Origin: Alphaproteobacteria bacterium
GTDB lineage: Bacteria > Pseudomonadota > Alphaproteobacteria > SP197
Assembly (NCBI GenBank): GCA_964291265.2
Contig: OZ219747.1
Location: 1,024,001-1,088,000, forward strand
Length of the DNA stretch: 64,000 nt
Direction of reading: 5' to 3'
Shown here: positions 44,581-60,427 of the stretch, in pieces
Position numbering within the stretch: position 1 is the first letter of the stretch
How the letters are laid out: each line of letters starts with the position of its first letter
The notes under the pieces: generated by a model
The model's input: the letters and a program-made list of their open reading frames with translations, nothing else
Told to the model about the DNA's origin: nothing
The model's database searches: none
Made by a program: the position numbers and the translations under genes

Positions 44581-44723
44581 GGGCTTCTTCCTCGGTTCGG
44601 CATGGTCATGATAACGGACTCGCGAGTGGGGAACAAGGCAGGAACATGTGATCTGCGCCACTCCAGGGGTTCAGCTTGCGGCACGAATCCTGTGTCGACG
44701 GCCGATGACGGCGCCGGCGCGGG

Positions 44724-47700
44724 TCATGGTTCGCTGTCGGTCACGTGACCGGGGAGAATGCGCCGCGCCGCCTCGTTGATCCGGCCCATGACACCCGCCC
44801 TGCAGAGCTCCTTGCGGATTCGCGTCGACCTGGCGACCTGCCCCTTGCGCAGTTCGGCCGCCCCGGCCCTCGCGATCCAGTTCTTCGCCACCGCCTCGGC
44901 CTCGCAACACAACGCCGCGAGAGCCCTGTGGGACGTCCGCCGCGGGTTGAACGCGGGGACCGGCACCTTGCGCCAGGGATGCAGGTGAAAGTCGCGGCCG
45001 CTCTCGCGCGCCGCGCCGAAGGCGCGCTTCAGTCCCGAGGCGTTGAGGAGCGCCACCAGCCAGGCCGCCTCGTCTTCCGAATCCGCCTTCCACCAGTAGA
45101 GACTGTCACCAACGAGCGGGCCGCAGCCATCGACCCGGGAGGCCCGCATGATGTCACCGGACTTCGGGTAGAGCACGAATTGCCCGCCCGGCTGCGCCAG
45201 TCCGGGCAATTGCGCCGAGAGCCCGGATGAATAGTCGAACCTCTCGAGAAGGGTCTTCGGCGTCGACGTGCCCACCGTGACGTTCTCGCGATAGAGGGCA
45301 TCGAGCCTGTTCCAGAAGCCACACCGCTCCCCGGGGTTGTCGACCAGGCGGAGTCCGTCAGGTTCGACCGGGATGATGGCCCGTCCGCCGGGGCCCATGA
45401 AGAACGGGAGAAGATCGCCGGACTGACGAACCGAACGGACCCAGCCCACGGGCACGTCGCCCCGCTCGGGCTCGACCGCCGCCCACTGAAACTGCCTGGA
45501 CCGGGCCGTCACGACCCGCACCATGCCGGTGCTCGCCCCCTCCTTCTCGCTGTCCAGGAACGACAGGACCCTGGGCAGGATCGTCGCCCCCTGACGGAAC
45601 AGGCCATCGTACCGGGATGCCTTGTCCCGGAACACCTTCGGCGGCGCCCTGAACCGCAGCCTGCCCAGGACATGACCGGCCTGCATGTCCGGTTTCAGCG
45701 TGAAGCGCCCGGCCGCCGGATTGCGATCGACGACGATGATGTCGTCCGTCAAGTCCGTGAGACGCCGGCACCGGCGGATGTCGAACAGGACACAGCAGCG
45801 CCGCGCATCACCGCCGCCGAAGGGCTTCAGGGCCTCCAGGTCGAGAGCCTGACCCTGCGCCCTTTCCTTCCACCAGGTGCGGAACTTGTGCCAGTTGCCG
45901 CCTTTCAGGGCGGCCTTCCTGACAATCCAGGCGGCGGGGTCCCGCTGCGGATCGTCGAGGTAGAGCATGCGGCTGCGCTTGACGAAGAGCTGGGCGATGT
46001 CGAGATGGGGACCCTGCTTTCCGCCGATCCACAGGTCGATCTCCCGGCCCTTCGCGAACTCCTCCATCGTCGTCCTGCGGTCCGGCACCTGGATCTCGCT
46101 CATCTTGACCCATGGCGGGTTGGCGACGATCCGGTTGACCTTCCTCTCGGCGAGCCGCACCGGCCCGGTGATGTTGGTCATGTACCAGCCCCACACGCCG
46201 TTGCCCTCGTCGGTGATGACGCGCGACAGGTCCCGGTGAAACTCCTCGAGCGCGGCGCGGTCATCGCCAGTGACGGTCGCCAGGATGTCCGCCGCCAGCG
46301 GCCGACATGGCGCACCGCCGTGGCGCCTCCCGGCATGGCCGACCGCCGATTCCGTCAACCGCCGCATGTTGCTCGTGAAGTGCCGCGTCCTGGCGAAGGA
46401 CCGGGGCAGCCGCAAGCTGCCGCCACCCGGCGTCGAGAACAGGAAATGGTCGGGCGAATGCGTGAACAGCGATGGCGCCTCGTCCCTCTGGGCAAGCAAG
46501 GCGTCGCCCTGGAAGACACAGACGGCGGCGGCGCCGTCAGGCGGCTCGGCCGGCAGGGCCCGCAGGATCGTGGCGCGGCTGATCTCGGCGGCAATGGGAT
46601 GAATGTCGATGCCGTTCAGGAGACGCGCGACCGCACCCGCCTTGCGCGCGGGCGGCAGCGCCGCATCCTGGAAGGCGGGCGAGCGAAGCAGGCGCCGCGC
46701 CGCATGGTAGAGGAAGGTGCCCGACCCGCATGCCGGATCGAGGACACCGATCCCGTCCAGGGCGTCGGCCTCCACCTCGGCCAGGAGCGCAGCGGCAGCC
46801 GAGCGTTCGCACCAGGCGTCATCCAGGACCTCGTCGACCAGCATCTGCGCCAGCCAGTCGGGCGTGTAGTATTCTCCGAAGATCTTTCGGTCCTTCTCAC
46901 CGACAAAGGTCTCGTAGACGGGTTTCAGCACGTCACCCCGCCTGCGCCGCCACTCGTACTCGTGGATCGAGCCAAGCAGGCCGGCGGCCCACGTTCGGCC
47001 GGTGGCGCTGCCCAGAATCCAGGACACGAACCCGTCACGCAGGAGGGCGGCGGCCTCGGGATCCCTGTCCGGGCGGGACAGCGTGTGGACGACGCCGCGC
47101 GCCAGCGCCACCAGAAACGAGTGGCGCAGGAACAATTCGTGCTGGCCGTAGGGGTCCGCCGGCGCCATCGACGAGGTGCGGAGCATGTCCAGCCACAGGT
47201 CCATCTGGGTCCCGGCCACCCGGGCAGGGCGACCCGCAAGGCCGGCCCGGACATCCCGAAGGGCCGCAAGGTGGCCGGCGAAGAGAGCGCTCGGGTTGGC
47301 CGGAATCCAGGGCTTGCCGACAGGCCCGCGACCCGTGAGCGGGCGCAGCCTCGCCAGAAGTTCGGCGGCGGCGTGAGGCCGCAGGCCCCTGAAGATCGTC
47401 TCGCCGAGGCTTCCCTCCTCGTGCGCGTAGCGCCACGCATGCCACACCCGGCCGTCGGTGACGAGGCCAACCCACGCACGGGAGCGTTCCGCCTCGCCCT
47501 GGAAGGCGACCTGGCCCAGTTCCGCCGCAATCTCGCTCCTCAGATAGCGCTCGAGCTGCTGGCGCGGAGATTCACCGGTGGCGGCGTCCGCGGCGTCGGG
47601 ATCGTCGGCCCGGCCGACGCGCTTGGTCTCGATGAGGACGCGGCGGCGGGGGAGATAGAGATCCGCCGGCCCATGGTCCGTGGCATACGTGATGATGTTC

Positions 47701-47825
47701 TCGATGCCGAGGGCATCGAACAGCCGGGCGATGTTCTGCCGGATGTTGTCTTCCGGCGCCGCCACGGATGTCCGCAGGAGCCGGTCGGCGGCCTCCACGA
47801 CATGATCGCCGAGGACGTCCGTCAC
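44724..47825 (-). CDS. Type IIG-like fused restriction-modification enzyme (REase + N6-adenine MTase + TRD)
   Basis: PADLY..LIETKR, GEYYTPDWLA, VLDPACGSGTFL, IVANPPW; GTG start overlaps the resolvase stop. Confidence 0.85.
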   Translation of the reverse strand: MTDVLGDHVVEAADRLLRTSVAAPEDNIRQNIARLFDALGIENIITYATDHGPADLYLPRRRVLIETKRVGRADDPDAADAATGESPRQQLERYLRSEIAAELGQVAFQGEAERSRAWVGLVTDGRVWHAWRYAHEEGSLGETIFRGLRPHAAAELLARLRPLTGRGPVGKPWIPANPSALFAGHLAALRDVRAGLAGRPARVAGTQMDLWLDMLRTSSMAPADPYGQHELFLRHSFLVALARGVVHTLSRPDRDPEAAALLRDGFVSWILGSATGRTWAAGLLGSIHEYEWRRRRGDVLKPVYETFVGEKDRKIFGEYYTPDWLAQMLVDEVLDDAWCERSAAAALLAEVEADALDGIGVLDPACGSGTFLYHAARRLLRSPAFQDAALPPARKAGAVARLLNGIDIHPIAAEISRATILRALPAEPPDGAAAVCVFQGDALLAQRDEAPSLFTHSPDHFLFSTPGGGSLRLPRSFARTRHFTSNMRRLTESAVGHAGRRHGGAPCRPLAADILATVTGDDRAALEEFHRDLSRVITDEGNGVWGWYMTNITGPVRLAERKVNRIVANPPWVKMSEIQVPDRRTTMEEFAKGREIDLWIGGKQGPHLDIAQLFVKRSRMLYLDDPQRDPAAWIVRKAALKGGNWHKFRTWWKERAQGQALDLEALKPFGGGDARRCCVLFDIRRCRRLTDLTDDIIVVDRNPAAGRFTLKPDMQAGHVLGRLRFRAPPKVFRDKASRYDGLFRQGATILPRVLSFLDSEKEGASTGMVRVVTARSRQFQWAAVEPERGDVPVGWVRSVRQSGDLLPFFMGPGGRAIIPVEPDGLRLVDNPGERCGFWNRLDALYRENVTVGTSTPKTLLERFDYSSGLSAQLPGLAQPGGQFVLYPKSGDIMRASRVDGCGPLVGDSLYWWKADSEDEAAWLVALLNASGLKRAFGAARESGRDFHLHPWRKVPVPAFNPRRTSHRALAALCCEAEAVAKNWIARAGAAELRKGQVARSTRIRKELCRAGVMGRINEAARRILPGHVTDSEP

Positions 47826-48406
47826 GCGCGTTGCTCCTCGTCGCCGCCCGCCGCCCGGCCACGCGGCAGGCGGCGATAGAGCGTCGAGACGGAGACGCCG
47901 AAGCGGCGGGCGACCTGGGCGGCGGTGATGTCCGGATCGCGCAGCATCGCGCTCGCCTCCTGGAGGTCGCGATCGGTGAGGGCGCGAGGCCTCCCGCCGA
48001 CGCGGCCTTGCGCCCTCGCCGCCGCCAGGCCGGCCAGGGTCCTCTCGCGGATGAGTCCGCGCTCGAATTCGGCAAGGGCGGCGAAGACATGGAAGATCAG
48101 TCGTCCAGGCGCCGTCGTCGTGTCCAGGGCCTCGTTGAGGGACTGCAGGCCGCACCCTCGACCGTCCAGGGTCTCGACGGTCTCGATGAGCTGGCGCAGC
48201 GACCGCGCCAGGCGGTCGAGGCGCCACACGACGAGGGTATCGCCGTCCCGCATCCAGTCCAGGGCCGCCGCCAGCTGCGGGCGCCCGCGGTCGGCCCCGC
48301 TTGCCGACTCCTCGAAGATCCGGCCGCATCCGGCCTCGTCGAGGGCGCCGACCTGCAGCGCCGTGTCCTGCGCCACGGTGGAAACGCGGGCATATCCGAT
48401 CAGCAT
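47822..48406 (-). CDS. Resolvase/invertase (small serine recombinase)
   Basis: MLIGYARVST..Q, GDTLVVWRLDRLARS, AEFERGLIRERT..GL, GGRP, C-terminal HTH GVSVSTLYR. Confidence 0.93.
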   Translation of the reverse strand: MLIGYARVSTVAQDTALQVGALDEAGCGRIFEESASGADRGRPQLAAALDWMRDGDTLVVWRLDRLARSLRQLIETVETLDGRGCGLQSLNEALDTTTAPGRLIFHVFAALAEFERGLIRERTLAGLAAARAQGRVGGRPRALTDRDLQEASAMLRDPDITAAQVARRFGVSVSTLYRRLPRGRAAGGDEEQRA

Positions 48407-48541
48407 GATCCCTCGCACAAACGACGGTTATTGCAACAGTCGCTCAACGCCCCGGTATCGTGGTCCCGAAAGGGCCGCGGAGTGTTGCAGAACTCATCGC
48501 AAAACCTCGAGTCGCACTATGGCCGATCGGAACGTTTTCGG
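48407..48541. promoter_or_regulatory. Probable res site/promoter region of the resolvase
   Basis: Relatively AT-rich non-coding tract directly upstream of the resolvase; subsites not resolved. Confidence 0.35.
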
Positions 48542-48553
48542 GAAGGATGGATC

Positions 48554-48931
48554 TCAAGTCCTGTCGGTGTCGATATCGGCCACACCTTCGATCGCCTGGA
48601 TCAATTCGAAGTGCTCGCTCGGCACGGGGCGGTAGCCGCGGCGGACCTTGGTCTTGACGATCGTCTCGAGGGCGCGGATCGCCGAGGCCCGGTCCGCAAA
48701 GTGCGTCAGGCGCACGGTGCCCGCCTGGCCGATCCTGCCCCACTCGCGGAACAGGATGCAGCCGCCGAAGAGATCGCGCATGAGGGCCACGGAGTAGAAT
48801 CTCCAGACGTTGTCCGGTGGGTGGATGCGCTCCAGCCTGCAGGGCGCCGGGAGTGGCGGCGGCGGTGCGTTCATGAGGCTCACGTCGGGGCCGGATCCCC
48901 CGTCGCCCGGATGATCCGCGAGACGGCTCAT
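48554..48931 (-). CDS. WGR domain protein with a foreign C-terminal tail
   Basis: LERIHPPDNVWRFYSV...DLFG...REWGRIGQAG..KVRRGY; tail SEHFELIQAIEGVAD matches the 33775-34341 protein. Confidence 0.8.
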   Translation of the reverse strand: MSRLADHPGDGGSGPDVSLMNAPPPPLPAPCRLERIHPPDNVWRFYSVALMRDLFGGCILFREWGRIGQAGTVRLTHFADRASAIRALETIVKTKVRRGYRPVPSEHFELIQAIEGVADIDTDRT

Positions 48932-50151
48932 GGCTCGTCGGCGGGCGCGGTGCCTCCCGCATCGACGGTGACGGCGCACCTGTTGCCGCGGTCGGCCGCG
49001 GCGTTGATGCACCGCGCGATCTCCTCGCCGGCGAGCTCCCACACGCGGTCCTTCCAGCCCAGGGTGTCGTTCGTCGGGTCGAGGAGCGTGTAGCGCTGCT
49101 GCACGACGACGCCCAGGGCGCCGGCGCAGAGGGTGACGACGAGGATCGAGACCCAGGCAAACCGGATGAAGGCGCGGCGCGGCCGGGCGGCAGCCTCGAG
49201 GAGCTCGTCGACGGCATGGCGCACCTCGTCCGCGTCGACGGGCGGCTCGGGCGGCGCCAGGGCCGGCGGTTCGCTGCCGCCCGGCGGCGGCGTGCGAGCG
49301 CCCTCATCCAGGATCTGCGGGGGTCTTGCGGGTCGGATGATCCCGACGATGCGGTCGAGGCGGGTCATGACTTCCTGGAACGCCTGCCATGCGGGAGGCA
49401 TCCCGGCATCGTCGCCCGCCGCGCCGCCCGCCAGGGCGATGGCGGCGGTGATGGTCTCGTTCTGCGCCTCCTGCGCCGTGCGGATGGCGCCGAGAGCCTC
49501 GAGGATCTCCGTCTGCCGGGGCGCGGGGTCCGGGAGGCGGGCGAGGCGCTTGTCGATCTTCGCGAGGAGGCGGAGGATCTTCTTCTCGCGCTTCGTTGGC
49601 GCCGGCGGCGAGGGTGGGAGAGAGGCGGCCGGTGTCCCGTGGTCGGCGGCCGGCGCGGGACCGGCGGCCGAGGCCGCCTCCGCGCCGGGGCCCTGGGCGG
49701 CAGGGCCGGCGTCATCGCCGCCGGCCGGCGCGGCAGCGGCTCCGTTCTCCCCGGCAGCCGGCGCGGCCTCGCCCCCGTCCTGCGGAGCGGCGGCGGGGTG
49801 CGCCTCGTCCTCGGCCTCCGGTTCGCCGGCGGCCTGCGCCCCGGCGCCCTGCCGGCCCGGCGGGGCCCCGGTGCTCCCTTCGTCTGTGGCGGGGTGGTCC
49901 TGCGGGTCGGACGGGGATGTCATGGTCTCCTCCTGCGCGGCGGCGTCGGCGGCGGGATGGCCGGGGACCAGATGGTCGATCCGGCGGGCGAGGGCCTCGA
50001 TCAGCTCCCGCGTCTCGCGGGCGCCGGTGGCCGCGGCGGCGAGGCGGGTGGCGTTGGCCTTCGACAGTTCCAGCATCTGGCCGATGCCGCGCTCGATGAT
50101 GTCCTCGATGGTGCGGGCGTCGGCGGGCGCCTCGTCCGGTTCGCTGCTCAT
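48928..50151 (-). CDS. Pro/Ala-rich protein with a C-terminal TM segment (conjugation-region accessory)
   Basis: GGAGG RBS; ATGA-coupled to the virD4 fragment and the WGR gene; TM FAWVSILVVTLCAGALGVVV and a C-terminal Cys pair. Confidence 0.55.
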   Translation of the reverse strand: MSSEPDEAPADARTIEDIIERGIGQMLELSKANATRLAAAATGARETRELIEALARRIDHLVPGHPAADAAAQEETMTSPSDPQDHPATDEGSTGAPPGRQGAGAQAAGEPEAEDEAHPAAAPQDGGEAAPAAGENGAAAAPAGGDDAGPAAQGPGAEAASAAGPAPAADHGTPAASLPPSPPAPTKREKKILRLLAKIDKRLARLPDPAPRQTEILEALGAIRTAQEAQNETITAAIALAGGAAGDDAGMPPAWQAFQEVMTRLDRIVGIIRPARPPQILDEGARTPPPGGSEPPALAPPEPPVDADEVRHAVDELLEAAARPRRAFIRFAWVSILVVTLCAGALGVVVQQRYTLLDPTNDTLGWKDRVWELAGEEIARCINAAADRGNRCAVTVDAGGTAPADEP

Positions 50152-50599
50152 GGCTTCCTCCGGGGAGTCTGCTCGTCCGCCGGGGCGGCGAGGCCGCCCG
50201 AGGCCTTGCGGATGACGAACGGGTTGGGGCGGCCGAGGCGGCGCACATCGGGCCGTTCCCAGTGGCGGGCGTGGAAGAGGTGGAGGGCGTTGCGCGGTAC
50301 CGTCTTGCCGGCGGCGATGACGTACTGCTCGTCCGGGCGCATGGTCATCAAATCGTCGGGCGGCACCAGGAACTCCCGCACCAGCTGCGTCGATTCCCCG
50401 GTCTGGACCTGGGCCGAGGACATCAGCGCCTGCTGTTCGGAGACCGTGCCGGACCGGCTCTCCGATTCGGCGACGAACGTGGTGTGTCCGATGGCCTTGG
50501 CGAAGTCCTCCGCGCCGCGCGCGTCGGTGCGCGGGAAGCCGAGGATCTGGATGACCTCGGCGAGGTCGATCAGCGTGCGCGTGGGATCCTTCCCCCAGG
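50148..50599 (-). pseudogene. 3' fragment of a VirD4/TraG coupling protein, cut at the IS21 end
   Basis: WGKDPTRTLIDLAEVIQILGF...AEDFAKAIGHTT....S.S.....REFLVPPDDLMTMRPDEQYV fits the TraG/VirD4 C-terminal region; no 5' part. Confidence 0.7.
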
Positions 50600-50739
50600 T
50601 GTCGGCGGCGATTTAGAACGGCGGGATATTGGCGGAGAACCGCTCTTTTGGGCGCTGATCGTGTGAGTGGGTGACCACGACAGGAGAACGTGCGGCATTG
50701 GACGAAGGTCCGCCCGGTCTTTGTTTTCTGCCTATTGTT

Positions 50740-51696
50740 GGATCCCATTGGTCTTGCATTGACGTTGACGATGTCGTTCCGGTCGGCGTTTTCTGGCGTT
50801 CGGCGTTTGTGGAACGTGATGTGGGAGGGGAGCTTCAGGCTTTTGCGCGTGGTTTCGTTCTGGCGTTCTCCGGCCTCGTCGTGGTTCGTCGGGCGGGACG
50901 ATCTCGAGGCTGGAGAGCTGACGGTTTCTGTTGCGCTGGGCGAAGAGGCTGCGTGCGTTGCGGTTGCGGCGGCGCAGGGTGCGGCAGGCGTCGAGTGTTT
51001 TCGGGCGGATGCTGCGACCTGTGAGCCAGTCCGGCGGCGGATCGGGCGTTGCTGCGGCTCAGCGGCTGCGGCAGTCTCGTGATGTGGTGTCGTTTGGACG
51101 GCCCGGGGGTTTCCCGGGGAGGCTGAGAGGCGCGTCGGGGTGAGACGTTCTCATTCCTGGATGGTAACGCGTGACCGCGTTCAAGGGTCTTGCGAGATTA
51201 CGTGTCCCTTCCGTAGCCGCGTGGCGGTTCGATGTCCTCGAGAGCCTCGATGTCGGCATCGGCGACGCTCTGCAGGCGTTCTCCGTAAGGCGTGTCACGG
51301 AGGGTTTCGGGGATGCTGTCGAGGCGGTCACGCCATTCGTCCTGCAGGGTGCGGCAGGCGTCGAGTGTTTTCGGGCGGATGCTGCGACCTGTAAGCCAGT
51401 CCGGCCAGCGGCTGCGGCAGTCTCGTGATGCGGTGTCGTTTGGACGGCCCGGGAGTTTCCCGGGGAGGCTGAGCGGCGCGTCGGGGTGAGACGTTCTCAT
51501 TCCTGGATGGTAACGCGTGACCGCGTTCAAGGGTCTTGCGGGATCACGTATCCCTTCCGTAGCCGCGTGGCGGTTCGATGTCCTCGAGGGCCTCGATGTC
51601 GGCATCGGCGACGCTCTGCAGGCGTTCTCCGTAAGGCGTGTCACGGAGGCTTTCGGGGATGCTGTCGAGGTGGTCACGCCATTCGTCCTGCAGGGC
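50740..51696. repeat. Decayed partial duplications of the Toprim gene end and the small downstream ORF
   Basis: 50760-51060 is a deleted, diverged copy of the 51890-52450 region; 51060-51350 and 51406-51696 are direct repeats with 346-bp period. Confidence 0.8.
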
Positions 51697-51834
51697 GCGC
51701 AGTTCGGCCACGGCGTCGTTCCAGCGTTGCGGTCGCGAGCGCCGGTCACGGTGCTTTGGGGTGTGGACGGGAGGGATGCCGGCCTTGCGCCGTTCCCGGT
51801 ATCGCCGCTGCTTTTCGGCGGGCGTGAGGGGCAT
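51544..51834 (-). CDS. Small hypothetical protein
   Basis: MPLTPAEKQRRYRERRK...SRPQRWNDAVAELRALQ...IEPPRGYGRD; AAGGAG RBS. Confidence 0.7.
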   Translation of the reverse strand: MPLTPAEKQRRYRERRKAGIPPVHTPKHRDRRSRPQRWNDAVAELRALQDEWRDHLDSIPESLRDTPYGERLQSVADADIEALEDIEPPRGYGRDT

Positions 51835-51860
51835 GAGTGGTCTCCTTGTGACGGACGTGG

Positions 51861-52754
51861 TCATGATCTCGCTTGTGGTTCTTTGGTCCTGGCGTTGACG
51901 ACGTCGTTCCAGTCGGCGTTTTCCGGCGGTCTGCGTCTGTGGAACGAGACGTGGGAGGGGAGCTTCATCTTTTTGCGCAGGGTTTCGGCCTGTCGCTCTC
52001 CGGCCTCGTCGTGGTCCTGGGCGAGGACGATGGTCCTGACGTTGGGCAGGCTGCTTGCGGCGAGGCTGATCTGTTCGTGCTGTCTTCGCGAGGGTGCCCC
52101 GGCGGTGGAGAGGAAGGCGTGGCTGGGGGGACATTGGTCGATCTGGGCCAGGCTGAGGGCGTCGACGGCGCTTTCGGTGATGACGAGGGCCTCGAGGTCC
52201 GCGGCGGTTCCGGCGCGGACGGCGAACAGGCTTCGGGTTCCACCGGTGGCGAAGCGTTTCGGTCCGTCGGGGGGACCGATCTCGAAGCCGGTGAGCTTTC
52301 GCTTCCTGTTGCGATGGGCGAAGAGGACGCGTCCGTTGTGGTCGCGGCGGACCAGGGGGCGGCAGGTGTCGAGGGTCTCCGGGAGGATGCCGCGCCCGGT
52401 GAGCCAGTCCGGGGCCGCATCGGGCGTTGCCGCGGCCCAGAGGCTGCGGAAGTCGCGTGGCGCGGTGTCGGGTGCTGTGAAGCGGGTGCAGATGTCGGCG
52501 AAGGCCAGTCCGCGGTTGAGCATGAAGTCGATGACGGTTCCGTTGTCTTCATCGTTCTGGGTGTTGAAGTAGACCCAGTGTCCGTTGTTGAGGCACTTCG
52601 TGACGAGCTTCGGCAGGCCGGGTGCGCACAGGACGGGGTTGGCGCGTGTCGAGGCCTGTTCGTCGCGGACGTATCCCCAGTCGGCGGCGATGCGTTCGAA
52701 CGGCATGCGCTTGACGGCGTCGAAGTCGACGCGGCGGGGTTTATCGGGTTTCAC
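51861..52754 (-). CDS. Primase-like protein (DUF3991-like + Toprim)
   Basis: GHWVYFN..DNGTVIDF, WLTGRGI, LTGFEI, VITESAVDALS, STAG, VLAQDHDEAGE (DxD), DWNDVV; GTG start overlaps the istB end. Confidence 0.8.
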   Translation of the reverse strand: MKPDKPRRVDFDAVKRMPFERIAADWGYVRDEQASTRANPVLCAPGLPKLVTKCLNNGHWVYFNTQNDEDNGTVIDFMLNRGLAFADICTRFTAPDTAPRDFRSLWAAATPDAAPDWLTGRGILPETLDTCRPLVRRDHNGRVLFAHRNRKRKLTGFEIGPPDGPKRFATGGTRSLFAVRAGTAADLEALVITESAVDALSLAQIDQCPPSHAFLSTAGAPSRRQHEQISLAASSLPNVRTIVLAQDHDEAGERQAETLRKKMKLPSHVSFHRRRPPENADWNDVVNARTKEPQARS

Positions 52755-53442
52755 GCCTGAGCCGCCAGGAGTCGCTGTCGATGGAGATGAGGGTTGCGTC
52801 GTGCATGAGCCGGTCGACGGTGCCGGCGATGCCGGAGGCGCTGGGGAAGACGCGGTCCCACTGGGCGAAGGCGAGGCTTGTCGTGACCATGGTCGAGCGG
52901 CGCTGATAGCGCCGCGAGACGATGGCGTAGAGGATGTCGGCATGGTGGCTTTCGAGGGTCACGTAGCCGATTTCGTCGAGGATGAGCAGGCGGGGCCTGG
53001 CGAGGATCGCGAGGCGGCGGCGCAGCTCGCTGCGCGAGACGGTCTCGGCGAGTGCCTCGAGCAGTTCCGGCGCCTTCTCGAAGCGGACGGTGTGGCCGTG
53101 CAGCAGGGCCTGGTGCGCCACGTTGGCGGCGATCATGGTCTTTCCGGTGCCCTGCCCGCCGACGAGCACGGCGTTGTCCGCACGGTCGACGAAGCCGAGG
53201 CCGAGGAGCGCTTCGACATGAGCCCGGCTGATGTCGCGCGGCCATGTCCAGTCGAAGTCCGCCAGGGGCTTGAAGGCGGGCAGCCGCGCCGCGGCGCGGC
53301 GGCGCTCGTGGCTGCGGGCCCTGCGGGCCTGTTCCTCGCCGCTGACCACCTCCTCGATCCATGCGGTCCCGGCGACCTCGTCCCAGCGTTCGACGAGCCC
53401 GTGGAGGCCGAGCGCCCGGGCACGCTCCCTGAGCTCGCTCAT
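52741..53442 (-). CDS. istB: IS21 helper ATPase IstB
   Basis: KPLADFDW, LVGGQGTGKT, LLILDEIGY, RRY..RSTMVTTS..F..W, DRLMH, SWRL. Confidence 0.92.
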   Translation of the reverse strand: MSELRERARALGLHGLVERWDEVAGTAWIEEVVSGEEQARRARSHERRRAAARLPAFKPLADFDWTWPRDISRAHVEALLGLGFVDRADNAVLVGGQGTGKTMIAANVAHQALLHGHTVRFEKAPELLEALAETVSRSELRRRLAILARPRLLILDEIGYVTLESHHADILYAIVSRRYQRRSTMVTTSLAFAQWDRVFPSASGIAGTVDRLMHDATLISIDSDSWRLRRETR

Positions 53443-54932
53443 GTCTTGTTCCTGGCGCTGGCTTCGGGCCTGTCGTAGGCGTCGAGAGCGGTCCCCCGCG
53501 GCGTCGTGCCACGGCCGCCGCGGCCGTCGTCGGCGATGCTGAGGGGCGGCAGGCCCTGCTCCCGGCGGCGCTCCTCGATGATGACGCGCACGGTTTCGGG
53601 GTGGCACGAGCCGCGCTCCAGCGCCGTGGCGACAGCCCGGTCGAGAGCGTCGGCGCCGTGCGCGTTGAGAAGCGTCTCCAGCATCCGGGCGCAGGAGGCC
53701 ACGTTGCGCCCGTTGGTCCCGGCGCGCGCCAGCATCTCCTCGGCCCGCGGCACGGTGCGCAGGACCCGGTCGCGGACGCTCATGGAGCGGGCCCGCCGCT
53801 TGCCCGCGGCGATCGCCCTGGCATGCTCCGGATCGGTGACGGCCTGCTTCCTGTTGTAGGAGCGTCGGTGGCGCGCGACCTCGTCGGCGCCGTCGAGGAT
53901 GCGAACCTCGTCGCGGTCGGCGACCAGCGTCAGCAGGGCCTTGGAGAAGCTACCCGGAACGCTGTAGTCGTTGGTGTCGAAGCGGGCGTGGCAGGTCTTG
54001 TCGATGCGCACCGGGCGGACCTCGTGATGCGGGAAGGGATCGGCGGGAAGGACGATCAGGTGCTCCCTCTCCCGGGCGAAGGCGTCCCGCACCAGGAGAC
54101 TGTCGTCGTCCGGCCAGGGCCGCTCCGCGGCGGCGCCGAAGCACCACTCCCGAACTGCGGCGTTGAGCTCGCCGAGCGGGACCGTGATGTCGCGCCCGGC
54201 GAAGAACCCGGTGCGCGCGAAGCGCACACGGCGTTCCACGCGGCCCTTCTCCTGCGGGCTCCTGGGCCAGGCGGCGCTCGGTTCGAAGGCATAGTGGGCC
54301 GCGAGGCCGAGCAGCATCGGATGATAGGTGACCGCCTTGCCGCGGCGCGTCACCACGGCACTCTTCAGGTTGTCGTACAGAAGCCTCCGCGGCACACCCC
54401 CGAATGCCGCGAAAGCCTCGACATGGCCTTGCAGGAAGCTGGCCATCCGCGCGTCGTGGAACAGGCTCAGGACAGTCTGGCGCGAGTAGCTGAGGGTGAC
54501 GAGAAGCCCCATGAGCCTGCGCTCCGCCCGGCCGATGCGGACCTTCCCGAACTCGGCCCAGTCAACCTGCGCCTGCTCGCCCGGAAGGAAGCTCAGCCGC
54601 AGCGACGGCTCGGGCCTCTTCACCGGCCTCAGCCCAAGGCGGCGCAGGTCGTGACGGAAGTGATCCTCGCCGCCGCGGTAGCCCAGAGCCACGACCTGTC
54701 GCCAGAGCGTGCTGGCCGGAAGGTCCGGCGACGCCTCAAGACGCTCCCCGAGGAAGGCAACGAAGGGGTCGATGAGCTTGGCCCGCGGCCGCCGCTCCTG
54801 CCCCGACGCCTTGAGCGCCCGCGTCACCGTGCCGTGGTGCACGCCGAGATGCCGGGCAATCGTCCCCACAGCCCAGCCCTCGGCCCGCGACAGCCGCACG
54901 ATCGTCGCCCGCGTGTCCTCGTCGATCGCCAT
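53439..54932 (-). CDS. istA: IS21 DDE transposase IstA
   Basis: N-terminal HTH, PGEQAQVDW, LSYSR, FGGVPRRLLYDNLKSAV, PQEKGRVER, NDYSVP. Confidence 0.93.
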   Translation of the reverse strand: MAIDEDTRATIVRLSRAEGWAVGTIARHLGVHHGTVTRALKASGQERRPRAKLIDPFVAFLGERLEASPDLPASTLWRQVVALGYRGGEDHFRHDLRRLGLRPVKRPEPSLRLSFLPGEQAQVDWAEFGKVRIGRAERRLMGLLVTLSYSRQTVLSLFHDARMASFLQGHVEAFAAFGGVPRRLLYDNLKSAVVTRRGKAVTYHPMLLGLAAHYAFEPSAAWPRSPQEKGRVERRVRFARTGFFAGRDITVPLGELNAAVREWCFGAAAERPWPDDDSLLVRDAFAREREHLIVLPADPFPHHEVRPVRIDKTCHARFDTNDYSVPGSFSKALLTLVADRDEVRILDGADEVARHRRSYNRKQAVTDPEHARAIAAGKRRARSMSVRDRVLRTVPRAEEMLARAGTNGRNVASCARMLETLLNAHGADALDRAVATALERGSCHPETVRVIIEERRREQGLPPLSIADDGRGGRGTTPRGTALDAYDRPEASARNKT

Positions 54933-54964
54933 GAACTCCCTCCCTTTGGTTCCTCAACGCCGCA

Positions 54965-55495
54965 TCACAGGTCCCTCAGCACCACATGCGTCACGACCCG
55001 TCCGCATCTGGCGCACCGAAGCGGCGATTCGCGTCGCTCTTGCGCCTTCACAACCGCAGGTAGGGAGGTCGGCAGCAGTCGGGAAGGGTGGTCCGTAACG
55101 ATTTCTTCAGAACCGGCGTCTCCAGACACCGCCGGAACGTCGCCAAGCAGCACCACAGCAGACGTCTGCGTGTCCATGATCTCGGCAACCATCGCCGCCC
55201 TGGCCTTCAACGCACGCGCCTCCTCCGCCTTGCGGAGCCGGTAACGCCGCTGGCGGTGACGGCCCGTCTCACGGCCCTTCAGCGTGCTCTGGTAGCGACG
55301 ACGCGACGCGCGGCGCCGCTCGATCCGGGACCGCTCCCTGCACTCCTTGGAGCAATACACATGCCCCCGGTCACACGACCGGCAGAGAACAACCTGCCGC
55401 TGACACCGCCTGCAGTTGAACAGTCGTCCTGTCGTGCACACCGTCCGTCTCGAGAGCGGGGGTGGACCCGGACGCAAAATGGCTCGACAATACAC
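54965..55495 (-). CDS. Cys-rich basic (Zn-finger-like) protein upstream of istA; start may be GTG 55441
   Basis: CRRC..LCRSCDRGHVYCSKEC, Arg-rich helix, C-terminal CARC. Confidence 0.65.
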   Translation of the reverse strand: MYCRAILRPGPPPLSRRTVCTTGRLFNCRRCQRQVVLCRSCDRGHVYCSKECRERSRIERRRASRRRYQSTLKGRETGRHRQRRYRLRKAEEARALKARAAMVAEIMDTQTSAVVLLGDVPAVSGDAGSEEIVTDHPSRLLPTSLPAVVKAQERRESPLRCARCGRVVTHVVLRDL

Positions 55496-55759
55496 GGGAG
55501 TTCGGTCCCCCGTGACCGGCTCGTCCGGGTGCTGCGCCGGGGGGCGTCACAACTCCGCCCGGCATCGCATCGCTCTTTCTCTTGATGCCGATCTAGCATC
55601 CACCCGGGGCGGCGGCAAAGACGCCGCCCCGGGACCGGACAACGCGACCCGCCCACAGGGAAGACAAACAATCCCGCGAGTGCCTCGGAACCGGAACCCT
55701 CCCGGCAACCGTCACCAAGACCGAAGCAGAGGTCGACGGAACCCGAACCGGACCAAAAC

Positions 55760-55852
55760 GACAATAGGAAAAGACGGCGGCGCTCGGGGAGACAACCAGC
55801 CGAACACTCAAACCACGACAACAGGACGTGACAATAGGACCTGACAACAGGG
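55760..55852. repeat. Subterminal GACAAYAGGR repeats
   Basis: Copies at 55760, 55817, 55830 and 55843 (last three with 13-bp period). Confidence 0.6.
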
Positions 55853-55919
55853 AAGAAACACGACCCTGACAAAGCGCGGCAAATCGCCGAAATCCCGCCG
55901 TTCTATGCAGCCATCAACA

Positions 55920-56158
55920 ACGCCCTGCCAGATCTGCGAGACGGCGACCGTCAGCGTGGTGAGCAGGGCCTGGGCGTCGTTGCGCCGCTGGGTCTCGGTG
56001 GCCGAGTTGTAGAGCTGCACGGCGCCGATCAGGGTGGCGGCGAAGAGCGCCAGGCCCATCAGCACCTGGAAGAGCGAGATGCCGCGGCGGCGCCGGGCGA
56101 TGAGACGGCGGGCGAAGGCGCGCCGGGTGGTGGCGGGGAGCGGCAGGGTGGCTGTCAT
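55920..56158 (-). pseudogene. Second prepilin copy truncated by the IS21 end
   Basis: Near-identical to the 56207-56794 gene up to QIWQGV; identity stops exactly at 55920. Confidence 0.85.
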
Positions 56159-56206
56159 GGGATGGTCTCCTTGGTTCATGGGGTCGGGAAGCGGGGCGCG
56201 GGTGCG

Positions 56207-56794
56207 TCACTCGAAGGTGAAGGTGACGTCGTTGGCGCCGACGCCGTTGTTGCAGGCGGCGCGGATCCCGCCCGGGGTCATCGGCTGGGCGATGGTCGTG
56301 GAGCCGACCGCCACGCCGGCCAGCGCGCTGCTGCCGGCCGCCTGGCCGGCGTAGGGGTCGATCAGCATGGCGCAGTTCTCGTCGTCGAGGTTCTCGAAGA
56401 TGATGACGTACTCGGTGGTGGCGCCGCGGACGCGCACGCGGGCGCCGAAGGGGTGGCGGATCCTCGGGTTGCGGGCGGATTCATCGAGGGCCGATGAGGG
56501 AATGGCGCCGCGGGCGGCGAGATCCAGGACCATGTTCGTCGTGCCGTAGGTGGCGACGCCCTGCCAGATCTGCGAGACGGCGACCGTCAGCGTGGTGAGC
56601 AGGGCCTGGGCGTCGTTGCGCCGCTGGGTCTCGGTGGCCGAGTTGTAGAGCTGCACGGCGCCGATCAGGGTGGCGGCGAAGAGCGCCAGGCCCATCAGCA
56701 CCTGGAAGAGCGAGATGCCGCGGCGCCGCCGGGCGATGAGACGGCGGGCGAAGGCGCGCCGGGTGGTGGCGGGGTGCGGCAGGGTGTCTGTCAT
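56207..56794 (-). CDS. Type IVb prepilin (PilS-like)
   Basis: Long basic leader ending RRRRG|ISLFQVLMGLALF, hydrophobic helix, HPFGARVRV, C-terminal Cys pair, terminal VTFTFE. Confidence 0.82.
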   Translation of the reverse strand: MTDTLPHPATTRRAFARRLIARRRRGISLFQVLMGLALFAATLIGAVQLYNSATETQRRNDAQALLTTLTVAVSQIWQGVATYGTTNMVLDLAARGAIPSSALDESARNPRIRHPFGARVRVRGATTEYVIIFENLDDENCAMLIDPYAGQAAGSSALAGVAVGSTTIAQPMTPGGIRAACNNGVGANDVTFTFE

Positions 56795-56824
56795 GGGATG
56801 GTCTCTCCTTCGGGCGGCGGCTGG

Positions 56825-57883
56825 TCAGATGGCGGTGGGCGCCTTGCTGGCGGCGTCCATGATGCTGAAGAGGGTCTGGATCATGGCGCCGATGATGACC
56901 GTGACGGCGAGCGTGAGGATCATGTTGAGGAGGGCGGCGCGGGCCTTCATCGTCGCCTCGGAACGCAGGACCCAGCGGTCGACGAAGCGGGCGAGCTTGA
57001 TCTCCCACCGGGGTATGTCGTCGAGGGCCGCCACCACCGGGATGAGCGCCGGGTCCGGAAAACCGTGACCCGAGAGCATCATCGCCCGGCCCATGCCGCG
57101 GCCGCTCGCCATGATCGTGCGGATGGTCTCGATGCGGTGACGGGTGTAAGGCGATGTCGCCTTCTCGAGGCGGGCGAAGGTGGCGTCGTTCAGATCGACG
57201 CCGGCGCGCAGGTACTCCAGGAGGACGAAGAGGAAGGCGGAGCCGACGATGGTGCGATAGATGCTGAACGGCGCGATCCGATCCAGGAAGGACCGTCCCG
57301 GCCCCTTCCACCGCAGCAGGACCTGGCGCAGGACGAGGGCGGCGAGGATGGCCGAGCCGATCAGCACGTGCGGGAAGGCGAAGAGCCACAGCGAGACGTC
57401 GCGGAAGACGGCGCCCAGGGGAGGCCAGCGGTCGTCGGGCAGGATCTCCTGGAACACCGGTATGAACCAGCCGCCGGCGCCCCACAGCATGAAGAGCACG
57501 GAGCCGATCAGCAGGGCGGGCAGCGCCAGGGCGGCCGTCACCGCCGCCGTCTGCCGCTGACGCAGATCGGCGACGCGCGCCGCCCCGGCGAAGAGGTGGG
57601 CGGCGTCGACCTCGCCGTAGGCCATGAAGATCATCGCCTCGGAGGCCGGGATCCAGCACGCCACCTCCGCGGCGAAGGCACCGCGCACCAGGGCGTCGCG
57701 CCAGTGGCGGATGATCCACGCCTCCTGGTTCCTGCCCTGGTCCCGCGCCGTCTGGATGGCGACCTCGAGGGCCGCCTCGATCGAGAAGTCGGCGTCGAGG
57801 AGATCGGCGAGAGTGGCGTAGAGGTCGATGCGCGCCCGCCGGCTGAGAAAGGCCCAGCAGAGGAGAGGCTTCCACCAGGTCAC
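56825..57883 (-). CDS. Type IV pilus inner-membrane platform protein (PilR/GspF-like)
   Basis: RIDLYATLADLL, FAAEVACWIPASEAMI, PFSIYR..GSAFL, GHGFPDP; three TM segments. Confidence 0.8.
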   Translation of the reverse strand: MTWWKPLLCWAFLSRRARIDLYATLADLLDADFSIEAALEVAIQTARDQGRNQEAWIIRHWRDALVRGAFAAEVACWIPASEAMIFMAYGEVDAAHLFAGAARVADLRQRQTAAVTAALALPALLIGSVLFMLWGAGGWFIPVFQEILPDDRWPPLGAVFRDVSLWLFAFPHVLIGSAILAALVLRQVLLRWKGPGRSFLDRIAPFSIYRTIVGSAFLFVLLEYLRAGVDLNDATFARLEKATSPYTRHRIETIRTIMASGRGMGRAMMLSGHGFPDPALIPVVAALDDIPRWEIKLARFVDRWVLRSEATMKARAALLNMILTLAVTVIIGAMIQTLFSIMDAASKAPTAI

Positions 57884-58446
57884 AGGCTCTTCCTCCCCGC
57901 ACCGGGCGCGGCGATGCGCCAGGAGCAGGCCTCGCCGGACGGGATCGCGTGGAGGAAGGCGGTGAAGGCCTGGACGGGCGAAAGCCCGAGGCGGCGCGTC
58001 GCCATGGCAAGCCAGGCACCGTCCGCCGCGCCGGCCAGGGCGGCGGCGAAGTCGAGCGCCATGAACGGGTGCGCCGCCGTCATCGCGGGCCACCATGCCG
58101 GGAGACCGATCATTCCCGCCGTGGCGACCACGGCGAGGACGAGGCGGGCGTCGCCGTGCGTGCCGATCGGCACGATGCCGCCGGAGGCGGTGCTGCGGGA
58201 CCGGTGGAAGGCGATGGCGGCCAGGGCGGCGTAGAGGACGGGGATCCGGTACCAGGGCAGGTCTGCCGGCGGGGCGGCGGCGATGGAGACGAGCGCCATG
58301 ATGGCGATCAGGCCGGTCACGAGGAGGGAACGGGCGCCGTGGGCGAGGATGACGGCACGCTCTTCGCGCAGCCTGTCCTTGCCGATGGCCGGGCATGAGG
58401 GCCGGCGGATCGGGCCGAGGAGGGCGAGGAGGAGGAACCAGATCAC
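57880..58446 (-). CDS. Membrane protein with one 'LAHGARSL/HGDAR/DGAW' unit
   Basis: ILAHGARSLLVTGL, PIGTHGDAR, LAGAADGAW; GTGA-coupled on both sides. Confidence 0.65.
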   Translation of the reverse strand: MIWFLLLALLGPIRRPSCPAIGKDRLREERAVILAHGARSLLVTGLIAIMALVSIAAAPPADLPWYRIPVLYAALAAIAFHRSRSTASGGIVPIGTHGDARLVLAVVATAGMIGLPAWWPAMTAAHPFMALDFAAALAGAADGAWLAMATRRLGLSPVQAFTAFLHAIPSGEACSWRIAAPGAGRKSL

Positions 58447-59255
58447 GGCGCGTCCCCGGGGGATGAGGGCGCCGCGATCCGCCAGGTGCTGGCGTCGCGC
58501 TTGAGGGCCGTTCGCAGGAAGGCCAGGAGCGTCTGCGGGAACGTGAGCTTCATGCGGCGCATGGCGGTGGCGGTCCAGGCGCCGTCGGAGAGACCGGCGA
58601 GGCCCGCGGCAAGGAGCAGCAGGAAGAACGGGCCCGGGAGGAGCAACGAGGTCTCGGGCGAGGCGGCGAGGAAACAGAACGCGGCGATGGCGGCGATGAT
58701 GAAGCGCGAATCGCCATGGGTCCCGGGTGGTACGATGCCGCCGCAGGCGACGAGGCGGGACCAGGCGAAGCCGAGGGTGGCGCCGCCGGCCCAGGCGATC
58801 GGCGCATGGCGCCAGGCGAGATCCGCGTCCGGCGCCGCGGCGATGGAGACGAACACCATGACGGCAATCAGCCCGGTGACGAAGAGTGAGCGGGCGCCGT
58901 GGGCGAGAACGAGAGACTGATCGCCGAGTATCCTGTCTTCATCGATCGGCTTGAGGAGAGCGGGTTCGACGGGGTTGCGATCGTCAACGGCAGCGTGACC
59001 GCTGCGGTGGCGCTTGCCAGCCTCGGTGTGGCGCTCGGCAGCGACAACCCCGCTGTCAGGGTGCTCGCTGCGATCCTGTTCGTCACCACCGTCGTTGATT
59101 TTCTGCTCTGGTGGTGCGGTCTGGGCAGCATCGTCGAGTCTTTCACCGGGTGATCCCCGCCCGCTGGCGGCGGGTGCGGTCACGGGCCGGCCACCGGCGA
59201 TGCGCGCCCGGCGGTTGAGAAAGGCCCAGCTGAGGATGGGCTTCCACCAGGTCAC
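58443..59255 (-). CDS. Chimeric membrane protein: duplicated pilR 5' end + one repeat unit
   Basis: Starts VTWWKPILSWAFLNRRARI (compare pilR VTWWKPLLCWAFLSRRARI); ends with VLAHGARSL, PGTHGDSR, LAGLSDGAW. True start uncertain. Confidence 0.5.
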   Translation of the reverse strand: MTWWKPILSWAFLNRRARIAGGRPVTAPAASGRGSPGERLDDAAQTAPPEQKINDGGDEQDRSEHPDSGVVAAERHTEAGKRHRSGHAAVDDRNPVEPALLKPIDEDRILGDQSLVLAHGARSLFVTGLIAVMVFVSIAAAPDADLAWRHAPIAWAGGATLGFAWSRLVACGGIVPPGTHGDSRFIIAAIAAFCFLAASPETSLLLPGPFFLLLLAAGLAGLSDGAWTATAMRRMKLTFPQTLLAFLRTALKRDASTWRIAAPSSPGDAP

Positions 59256-60427
59256 AGGCTCTTCCTCCCCGGGCCGCGGACGCCGGCGATCGCTCCTCGC
59301 AGGAGCGCGACGAGCGCCTGGCGGAAGCCAAGGTCGAGGTGGCGCATGGCCATCGCGAGCCAGGCGCCGTCGGCGATGCCGCACACGACGGAGGCGACCA
59401 GCAGCAGGACGAACGGCAGCGGCGCCAGGCCCAGGGTGAAGGCCTCGGTGGCCGCCGGAATCAGCCAGGCGGGAGGTCCGTCCTCGACCGGCGCGGCAGT
59501 CTCGGCCGCCGACGGCAGCCCGTCGATCAGCTCGTCGACCCGGCCGTCGGGGATCGCGATGAAGAGCGCCATGGCGAGAAGGGCAAACACCACCCGGGAG
59601 TCGCCGTGGGCGCCGATGGGAATGGCGATGTCGGGGCGGCGGCGGCGGGCGAGGAAGGCGACCGCGGCAAACGCCGGCCAGGCGCCGGCGACGAGGAGCC
59701 AGGGCTGATCGATCGGCGGCGCGGCGATGAAGGAGACGGCGCCCATGGTCAGGACCGCCAGGGTGAGGACGAGGGAGCGGGTCCCGTGGGCCATGATGAG
59801 AGACGGGTCCGGGTGGACCTGCTCCAGCGGCGAGGCGAGGGCGGCCGGCGGCGCTGGCGAAGCGGATGGCGCCGGCGCCACCACGATCCGCCAGGAGCAG
59901 GCGCCAGGGAAGCGGACCGCCCGGGCGAACGCGGCGAGGGTGCGGAAGAACGGCAACTGCAGGTGGCGCATGGCCGCGCCGACCCAGGCGCCGTCGGCCA
60001 GGCCGCACAGGGCGGCGGCGATGAAGAGGAGAACGAACGAGGCGCCGGTGAGGATCAGCATCTGGACCGGCACGTCGAGGAGCGCCGGCGGGATGACGAG
60101 ACCCGCCGTGGCGGCGAGGGCGAGGACGAAGCGGGCGTCGCCGTGGGCGCCGAGCGGCACGACGGCGCCGCCGGCCGCCGTGCGGGACCATGTCCAGGCG
60201 AGGCAGGCGAGGCAGCCGTAGATGCCGGCGAGGACGATGCCTGGCAGCGCGGCGGCGGGAGTGTGCCAGGGCGGGTACGCCAGCGGATCGGTTGCCATGG
60301 CGGCCACCGCCATGACAAGAACGAGGCCGGTGACAAGGAGAGATCGGGCGCCGTGGGCGAGGATGAGAGACTGATCGCTGTGTATTCGCTCTTCATCGAG
60401 GCTCTGAGGGATGTCGAGGCGGGTCAC
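59252..60427 (-). CDS. Membrane protein with two repeat units
   Basis: LILAHGARSL/PLGAHGDAR/CGLADGAW, then LIMAHGTRSL/PIGAHGDSR/CGIADGAW; GTGA overlap with the ATPase stop. Confidence 0.68.
   Translation of the reverse strand: MTRLDIPQSLDEERIHSDQSLILAHGARSLLVTGLVLVMAVAAMATDPLAYPPWHTPAAALPGIVLAGIYGCLACLAWTWSRTAAGGAVVPLGAHGDARFVLALAATAGLVIPPALLDVPVQMLILTGASFVLLFIAAALCGLADGAWVGAAMRHLQLPFFRTLAAFARAVRFPGACSWRIVVAPAPSASPAPPAALASPLEQVHPDPSLIMAHGTRSLVLTLAVLTMGAVSFIAAPPIDQPWLLVAGAWPAFAAVAFLARRRRPDIAIPIGAHGDSRVVFALLAMALFIAIPDGRVDELIDGLPSAAETAAPVEDGPPAWLIPAATEAFTLGLAPLPFVLLLVASVVCGIADGAWLAMAMRHLDLGFRQALVALLRGAIAGVRGPGRKSL

Follow-up and report, generated by a model that had tools for sequence, protein, structure and literature searches.

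An IS21-family transposon in which a primase-like Toprim gene is part of a conserved four-gene unit

Why would an insertion sequence (IS) carry a gene that looks like a primase? The question is raised by a 5,320-bp unit at 50600-55919 of a 64,000-nucleotide stretch of an alphaproteobacterial genome (GenBank assembly GCA_964291265.2, contig OZ219747.1, positions 1,024,001 to 1,088,000; we call this whole stretch the window), in which five open reading frames (ORFs), all on the minus strand, make up one whole mobile element of the IS21 type. Our answer has two parts. We are much more certain that four of the genes, namely a Zn-finger ORF, istA, istB and a DUF3991/Toprim gene, form a real unit in which the Toprim gene is kept by selection than we are of any role proposed for it. 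The role that we favour, with a probability of roughly 0.4, is that a long-resident captured primase starts new DNA strands on the single-stranded intermediate of the element's own copy-out. The matter is of wider interest in that ATPase-driven transposition has IS21 as its structural model, a system described as having two genes and no target selector. That a primase-like gene is kept as faithfully as the transposase suggests that copy-out transposons can themselves encode the replication step, normally the host's business.

Does the unit really move as one piece? It does. The host genome (4.83 Mb in 2 contigs) holds 30 full copies of the 5,320-bp unit at 98-100% identity, together with several further interrupted ones, and target duplications of 5-7 bp border 26 of the 30 (21 of 5 bp, 4 of 6 bp and 1 of 7 bp), against a range of 4-8 bp for IS21. 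Five full copies have the element's own sequence on one flank. This is an active, many-copy IS21-type transposon moving as a single 5.3-kb unit, and further copies with the same ends, as well as target duplications, were exactly what a first-pass annotation of the sequence had proposed to look for. Its description of TG...CA repeats around five same-strand ORFs with overlapping frames was also right, both in its coordinates and in the E and DxD residues that it read in the Toprim gene. Both ends begin with TGT (at 55919, and at 50600 read inward). The left terminal inverted repeat (55870..55919, minus strand, the 5' end in gene orientation) begins with this TGT and is the same in 30 of 30 full copies, one of them having C instead of the first T, and the ends of relatives are similar; the right repeat (50600..50650, minus strand), with its final ACA, was placed by repeat search and copy comparison. 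Over their outer 30 nt the two ends agree at 22 positions, the longest inverted repeat within 49500-57000 pairs 50614-50648 with 55871-55905 (35 nt, 77% complementary), and the ends are similar over about 50 nt; IS21 elements have two internal repeats in each end (L1/L2, R1/R2).

What kind of transposon is it? The istA gene (53439-54932, minus strand) encodes a 497-aa IS21 DDE transposase (NCBIfam NF033546, 223 bits against a cutoff of 160), in which D124, D187 and E233, which we take to be the DDE triad, are invariant among 30 homologues. The AAA+ helper ATPase IstB, of 233 aa, is encoded at 52741-53442 on the same strand and matches PF01695 (E 2e-50, 172 bits against a cutoff of 24), scoring slightly below the cutoff of NF038214 (192 against 200 bits); its Walker A residues G95/G98/G100/K101 and Walker B D156 are invariant among 17 homologues. 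Neighbouring frames overlap by 4 nt (istA/istB), 14 nt (istB/Toprim) and 4 nt (Toprim/small ORF). By its IstA, its IstB, its ends and its target duplication the element belongs to the IS21 family, and it departs from the prototype layout, in which IS21 and IS5376 have two ORFs between their terminal repeats, IstA nicking and joining the ends and IstB capturing the target DNA (PMC10122671). The proposed route for the family is copy-out/paste-in, a circle being made by replication from a single-strand bridge (as outlined in PMC11208146 and PMC9333248), and according to PMC10293859 no target selector has so far been reported for IS21. The likeness to IS21 and IS5376, as far as the accounts in PMC10122671 and PMC11208146 describe them, thus covers a DDE IstA, an AAA+ IstB, overlapping frames, repeats ending in CA, a short duplication and the lack of a strong target sequence. 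Unlike the prototype, this element has a four-gene core of 4.0-4.5 kb (5.3 kb with its tail), in which a Zn-finger ORF and a predicted RNA leader precede istA and a primase-like gene follows istB. A literature search, with ISfinder, TnCentral, subscription papers and supplements outside its reach, found no published description of IS21 joined to a primase-like gene; judged from its sequence, the element would seem to be of a known IS21-family kind in all but this four-gene primase-bearing layout, which we have not met in print.

Could the place of the Toprim gene beside istB be a peculiarity of this one locus, the doubt that the first-pass annotation raised against itself? It is not, because the linkage recurs in 18 other assemblies, under purifying selection. 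When species genomes were scanned with a Toprim alignment, the best 80 of 254 matches gave 76 loci, of which 67 from 21 assemblies are close (Toprim 51-78% identical), 26 of the 67 coming from one assembly. In 62 of these 67 (18 of the 21 assemblies) istB lies directly upstream of Toprim, and the five without an adjacent istB are 5'-truncated Toprim fragments; the full order of Zn-finger ORF, istA, istB and Toprim is found in 54 of 67 (13 of 21 assemblies), over IstA identities that run from 81% down to 44%. To judge from record titles, the hosts are Paracoccaceae, other Alphaproteobacteria and, on one short contig, a member of the Acidimicrobiales. Relatives that could be delimited by ends and duplications measure 4.0-4.7 kb, and in the most compact of them 145-190 bp follow the Toprim match. 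Coming from the other side, a search that began with IstB in 32 genomes of the order gave 8 matches at 63% identity or more, all 8 followed by Toprim (one truncated), and a single 50% match without it. The conserved unit is therefore these four genes in stable linkage. It is also rare: a Toprim profile run against 400 genomes of the class returned 6 weak matches, none with istA or istB at the locus. The picture of an IS21-type transposon with a primase-like gene and a Zn-finger ORF has held up well.

The first-pass annotation had gone further and proposed a five-gene transposon class, and here it counted one gene too many: the small ORF (51544-51864, minus strand, 106 aa) follows Toprim at 25 of the 67 close loci, all in one other assembly and at 43-44% identity, so that the conserved core has four genes. 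Within the host, 3 of the 30 copies, each with its own target duplication, share an R21* stop in this ORF, and its variants number 5 non-synonymous against 1 synonymous. Homologues in the host genome sit beside an IS110-like transposase and a serine recombinase, both labels being read from translations. Behind it lies a non-coding tail of scrambled relics (50660..51543, minus strand), with a 3' duplicate of the small ORF at 96% and three Toprim fragments at 81-84%; the stretch 50760-51404 is a scrambled Toprim and small-ORF relic, 81-96% identical to the working genes. Small ORF and tail are dispensable passengers, or hitchhikers. As an aside, small-ORF homologues at 58-78% identity lie beside mobile genes at L050:5206-5496 and at host C2:2592783-2593073 and 3295623-3295862, and the family, unnamed, falls into atlas clusters of 50-118 members.

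Is the Toprim protein a primase by fold? The gene (51861-52754, minus strand) encodes 297 aa from a GTG, overlaps the istB stop, and matches Toprim_2 (E 3.6e-13) and, weakly, DUF3991 (E 6e-4). Its AF2 model (pLDDT 89) finds its best match in the T7 gp4 primase (1nui: Z 15.8, root-mean-square deviation (rmsd) 3.3, 178 aligned, residues 97-292), a hidden Markov model comparison gives the same protein at E 3e-10, and Foldseek adds the Aquifex primase at E 4e-8, with primases filling the top Foldseek and VIA ranks. On the model, then, the predicted fold is that of a T7/DnaG-type primase, with an N-terminal beta subdomain followed by Toprim. Likeness of the N-terminal part to the DnaG zinc domain has as its sole basis a long Foldseek alignment to 2au3 at an rmsd of 18, and the N-terminal domain folded alone without an alignment reaches a pLDDT of 46. 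In the window copy the acidic site is complete: E194, D198, D247-x-D249 and D281-W-N-D284, N283 being present as well, and alignment sets E194, D198, D247 and D249 on T7 E157, D161, D207 and D209. Among 48 close homologues E194 is kept in 45 of 46, D247 in 42 of 44, D249 in 43 of 43, D281 in 41 of 43 and D284 in 41 of 42, so that five of the six acidic residues are 95-100% conserved against a mean of 59% at 30 other acidic positions. The DWND here corresponds to the DaN- motif, and Toprim_2/3/4 domains with that motif are described in the text seen of PMC5512222 as active primases of mobile and conjugative elements. The basic residues have fared less evenly. T7 K137 aligns to R174 (46 of 47 IS21 Toprims); T7 K122 and K128, called essential in a passage of PMC9198812, align to E and G in the family profile; and the T7 R124 position is G, A or S in 46 of 47 IS21 Toprims, with R167 (45 of 46) nearby, a residue that, from the alignment, may compensate for the lysine lost there.

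The same facts lend a little weight to the thought that the Toprim has turned nuclease, cutting the non-transferred strand in the manner of TnsA or processing gaps and so altering the transposition pathway: the E and DxD persist while primase-specific basic and second-acidic residues erode, and Toprim folds do include nucleases such as OLD (named in PMC8649781, as far as that source was available). We think it improbable, in view of the primases being the best match over the whole polymerase domain, where RNase M5 or topoisomerase Toprims rank lower at Z 8.9-10.8 against 15.8, and of the conserved DWND primase motif.

Might the gene simply be a neutral hitchhiker, recently captured and not yet lost? 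One can see the appeal, given that the neighbouring small ORF and tail behave as hitchhikers and that broken Toprim copies occur in relatives, one of them frameshifted (L100). This is nonetheless the least credible of the alternatives and is largely refuted. The frame is open, being intact in 29 of 30 full copies with its one stop a singleton. By the NG86 method the median ratio of non-synonymous to synonymous change (dN/dS) over 13 elements is 0.43 for Toprim, 0.42 for istA and 0.36 for istB, with 0.19, 0.26 and 0.20 respectively for the closest informative pair, and the synonymous distances covered run from 0.1 to 0.9. The trees are also congruent, Toprim having 6 of 10 splits in common with istA and 6 of 10 with istB, where istA and istB agree on 4 of 10. 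The Toprim gene is under purifying selection that matches that on istA.

Where did such a gene come from? Among distant Toprim loci (28-40% identity) istB is adjacent at 0 of 89, of which 60 have more than 1 kb upstream, and the recurring neighbours are a coupling protein (13), TrbI (12), ParA (12), relaxase (7), CagX/TrbG (6), RepA_C (6) and integrases. Toprim matches occur in 528 plasmid records, 343 of them conjugative, and a profile search placed a Relaxase domain, as a relaxase-primase fusion, in 11 of 15 long outside relatives scanned. The nearest outside relatives of the IS21 Toprim are conjugative primases, many of them relaxase-fused, and the gene was likely captured from a conjugative plasmid or from one of the integrative and conjugative elements (ICEs). 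Like the conjugative DnaG-type primases (TraC of RP4 and SogL, as portrayed in PMC5512222) and T7 gp4, it has the fold and the E, DxD and DWND site, and it is 30-38% identical to plasmid and ICE primase proteins, solo or relaxase-fused. Unlike conjugative primases, it is borne by an IS without transfer genes, is missing the conserved K160 and has D198N in many relatives, and it also has neither zinc ligands nor a helicase partner.

This ancestry is one argument for regarding the gene as selected cargo, an active primase with no part in transposition that would help conjugative or other single-stranded DNA bearing the element to become established in its new cell, or would benefit the host. TraC/SogL-type primases do prime transferred single-stranded DNA (on the evidence of the part of PMC5512222 seen), and the host genome is rich in mobile DNA. 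The gene has, however, stayed at the same overlapping place in lineages whose IstA identity falls to 44-49%, and it is retained in 29 of the 30 copies that share one cell, where a benefit in trans would tolerate decay, although this last point is weak, the copies being young. We rate the cargo explanation as unlikely, though a good deal less so than the nuclease.

Can an IS21 element of this general sort do without the primase? IstA relatives at E<=1e-60 number more than 4,500, and most among the 120 matches listed are 46-53% identical. Nine sister elements were read (six from 31 plasmid records, one from a genome and two from viral contigs), with IstA at 41-47% identity, and all nine have a Cys-rich ORF before istA and an ORF of about 70 aa after istB. 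The sister subgroup, which the records label as IS21 and nothing more, is found on plasmids of Aromatoleum, Mesorhizobium, Paraburkholderia, Cupriavidus, Alicycliphilus and Methylotuvimicrobium, with IstA 42-47% identical, and the six plasmid copies span 3.36-3.44 kb. They share with our element the Cys-rich ORF before istA, similar ends and target duplications, and they differ in holding the ~70-aa acidic ORF instead of Toprim after istB. This ORF overlaps istB, starts with a WTPEQA-like sequence and is annotated as hypothetical (L224-L229); it was not detected in 12 Toprim-bearing loci. Since all nine sisters hold it after istB, we suppose that the Toprim replaced it in an existing slot. Homology of this ORF to the small ORF of the element was considered and rejected (probability 0.4%). 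In the sister records L224-L229 the Zn-finger ORF before istA is unannotated.

The first-pass suggestion that the element may supply its own primase stays a plausible one. How, then, would the captured primase that we favour work? An ancestor with the Zn-finger ORF, istA, istB and the ~70-aa ORF would have had its last slot swapped for a primase, which, being co-translated with IstB, would chiefly serve the element that encodes it. Host DnaG would then be needed less for forming circles, or for making the second strand after conjugative transfer, the primase raising efficiency rather than being essential, while the Zn-finger ORF and leader RNA would likely regulate expression or assembly. Circle formation by IS911 reportedly requires host DnaG.

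Several observations weigh against a priming role, and they are best heard together. The Toprim is present in 0 of the 9 sister loci, yet 6 of the 6 plasmid copies have target duplications, and because they do, the subgroup evidently transposes without it. In 19 of 46 close homologues, multi-copy elements included, an N stands in place of D198, and where T7 has R124, a lysine is found in 37 of 40 conjugative relatives and in 1 of 47 IS21 Toprims. None of the three cysteines in Toprim residues 1-95 is kept among 30 close homologues, so there is no DnaG-type zinc site, an absence that is a family trait rather than decay inside the IS, because the conjugative relatives lack the ligands too. Circle formation by IS30 is primed by a flanking 3'OH with host enzymes (according to the text seen of PMC9333248). 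The assembled genome holds no abutted-end junction of the element, although transient circles would not assemble, and the contigs listed from one study's sequencing data (3 holders, none of those listed being RNA) hold no end-to-end joint, contigs alone being uninformative on this point. Finally, the dN/dS pairs lack independence, dS in GC-rich genes is underestimated by NG86, and a single assembly contributes 26 of the 67 loci.

Much of this would suit a Toprim domesticated into a non-catalytic or weakly catalytic DNA-binding accessory, which binds single-stranded DNA, forks or the transpososome and steers or regulates IstA/IstB, its acidic site kept for binding metal or DNA ends. The D198N lineages, the vanished R124-equivalent lysine and the lack of zinc ligands all fit, as does selection as strong as that on istA, and the position after istB, filled in the sisters by an unrelated small protein, may be an accessory slot. 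What speaks against it is the near-complete conservation of five acidic-site residues, and the want of any sign that the protein steers anything. No target motif emerged from 26 targets. Of 29 chromosomal copies, 15 point the same way as the leading strand, the replichores having been assigned by GC skew. Multi-copy DNA flanks 20 of 30 insertions against 151 of 600 random sites, an excess that is probably survival bias, because other IS families give 49 of 114: mobile DNA borders 51 of 91 ends of our element against 49 of 114 ends for eight other IS families pooled (p 0.07, the two ends of one insertion not being independent). No targeting signal was found, and surviving chromosomal insertions cannot reveal a preference for incoming plasmids. 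The first-pass suggestion that the extra proteins target conjugative DNA accordingly finds no backing here, there being no motif, no replichore bias and no clear mobile-DNA excess over other IS families. A prediction of the IstB-Toprim complex scored 0.00 against a mark of 0.32, and since the controls failed to fold too, it is evidence neither way. We consider the accessory function doubtful on balance, though it is the alternative that we take most seriously. Natural controls are at hand in the Toprim-less sisters, the D198N lineages and the stop-codon allele, and the present element, with its full acidic site and high activity (30 full copies), is a good system both for IS21 circle formation and for asking why transposons keep primases.

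And what of the front of the element? The Cys/Arg-rich putative Zn-finger ORF (54965-55441, minus strand) runs to 158 aa from a GTG, the longest frame extending to 55495, and carries CxxC, CxxC and CxxxC motifs, an Arg-rich helix and a C-terminal CxxC. It has no Pfam, NCBIfam or PHROG match above cutoff, its atlas clusters are unnamed, and its median NG86 dN/dS over 11 elements is 0.56. Found upstream of istA in 54 of the 67 close loci and in 9 of 9 Toprim-less sister elements, it is older than the Toprim and belongs to a wide Toprim-less IS21 subgroup. A tblastn search of plasmids with the Zn-finger core gave no match, and the search was insensitive, because the ORF is seen when plasmid loci are read directly. 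Just upstream lies a predicted multi-stem RNA leader (55453..55576, minus strand) conserved in 13 elements, about 125 nt long, with five helices and 32 pairs, 96.4% of the cells being paired and 8 of the pairs changed on both sides; its covariation was equalled in 0 of 500 shuffles, with the structure derived from the same 13-element alignment. No Rfam covariance model matched 50400-56100 at E<=1, a promoter scan gave 0 sites, and terminator-like sites numbered 2 against 3.9 expected. Hairpins can be seen by eye at a similar position in the sister IS21s.

Has the same thing happened elsewhere? The host also carries a 5,160-bp element (L048:7063-12222, or C2:47062-52221) with a Cys-rich ORF, an rve transposase, an ExeA-like AAA_22 ATPase, an AAA_25 ATPase and a DUF3991/Toprim, present with duplications in 4 intact copies and in 2 more into which the IS21 element has inserted. 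In G005 a 4,006-bp TG...CA element (L042:3647-7652) has a Cys-rich ORF, an rve transposase, an ExeA-like ATPase and a Toprim, with 15 Toprim matches, and similar layouts occur in other relatives (L038, L047, L105). We liken these by description to Tn6049 of Cupriavidus metallidurans, given in the accessible text of PMC2864759 as 3.5 kb with a secretion-ATPase-like gene. Tn6049 and Mu/Tn7-like elements resemble the IS21 element in pairing a transposase with an AAA+ helper, whereas the Tn6049-like elements differ in that their transposase and ATPase are of other families and their Toprims form a branch apart. In a quick tree (midpoint root, 78 rows, short proteins and 4 ambiguous ids dropped, group labels by similarity) the IS21 Toprims (support 99) and the Tn6049-like Toprims (support 100) sit on separate branches, which suggests separate captures. 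It is an appealing idea, if an unlikely one as matters stand, that DDE plus AAA+ transposons at least twice took over conjugative primases and became self-priming instead of using host DnaG; were it true, the AAA_25 (RepA-helicase-like) gene beside the Tn6049-like primase would form a primase-helicase module.

What, lastly, did the element do to its surroundings in the window? The window copy is one of the 4 full copies without a target duplication, and it stands between a virD4-like gene of which a 3' remnant is left and a pilin copy cut off after 80 codons. The remnant (50148..50599, minus strand), a coupling-protein gene 5'-truncated at the element end, has a weak PF02534 match (E 0.04) and a frame open to the junction; the pilin piece (55920..56158, minus strand), from a second type IVb pilin copy that is 3'-truncated at the other end and keeps its 5' 80 codons, is 97.5% identical to the intact pilin at 56207-56794 (Bundlin/PilS). 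No continuation of either flank was found elsewhere in the genome, and the DNA between them was probably removed in an adjacent deletion or when two copies recombined. To the right, 55920-62466 (minus strand) is a type IVb pilus cluster with the PilS/Bundlin pilin in two copies, T2SSF and a T2SSE ATPase, and together with the virD4-like remnant it has the look of a conjugative island that the element has damaged. The host's load of mobile DNA is very high, 151 of 600 random 200-bp windows of the main contig matching elsewhere, with many nested IS families. At C2:4237410-4258495 two direct copies of the element have 5,088 bp of IS-rich DNA between them; a 5-bp repeat matches at the outer ends only, and a third copy is nested in the first, an arrangement that is possibly a composite transposon. 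To the left of the element in the window, 43822-49042 (minus strand) holds a DUF5131 gene, a large N6-methyltransferase-like ORF, a serine resolvase and a WGR-domain ORF.

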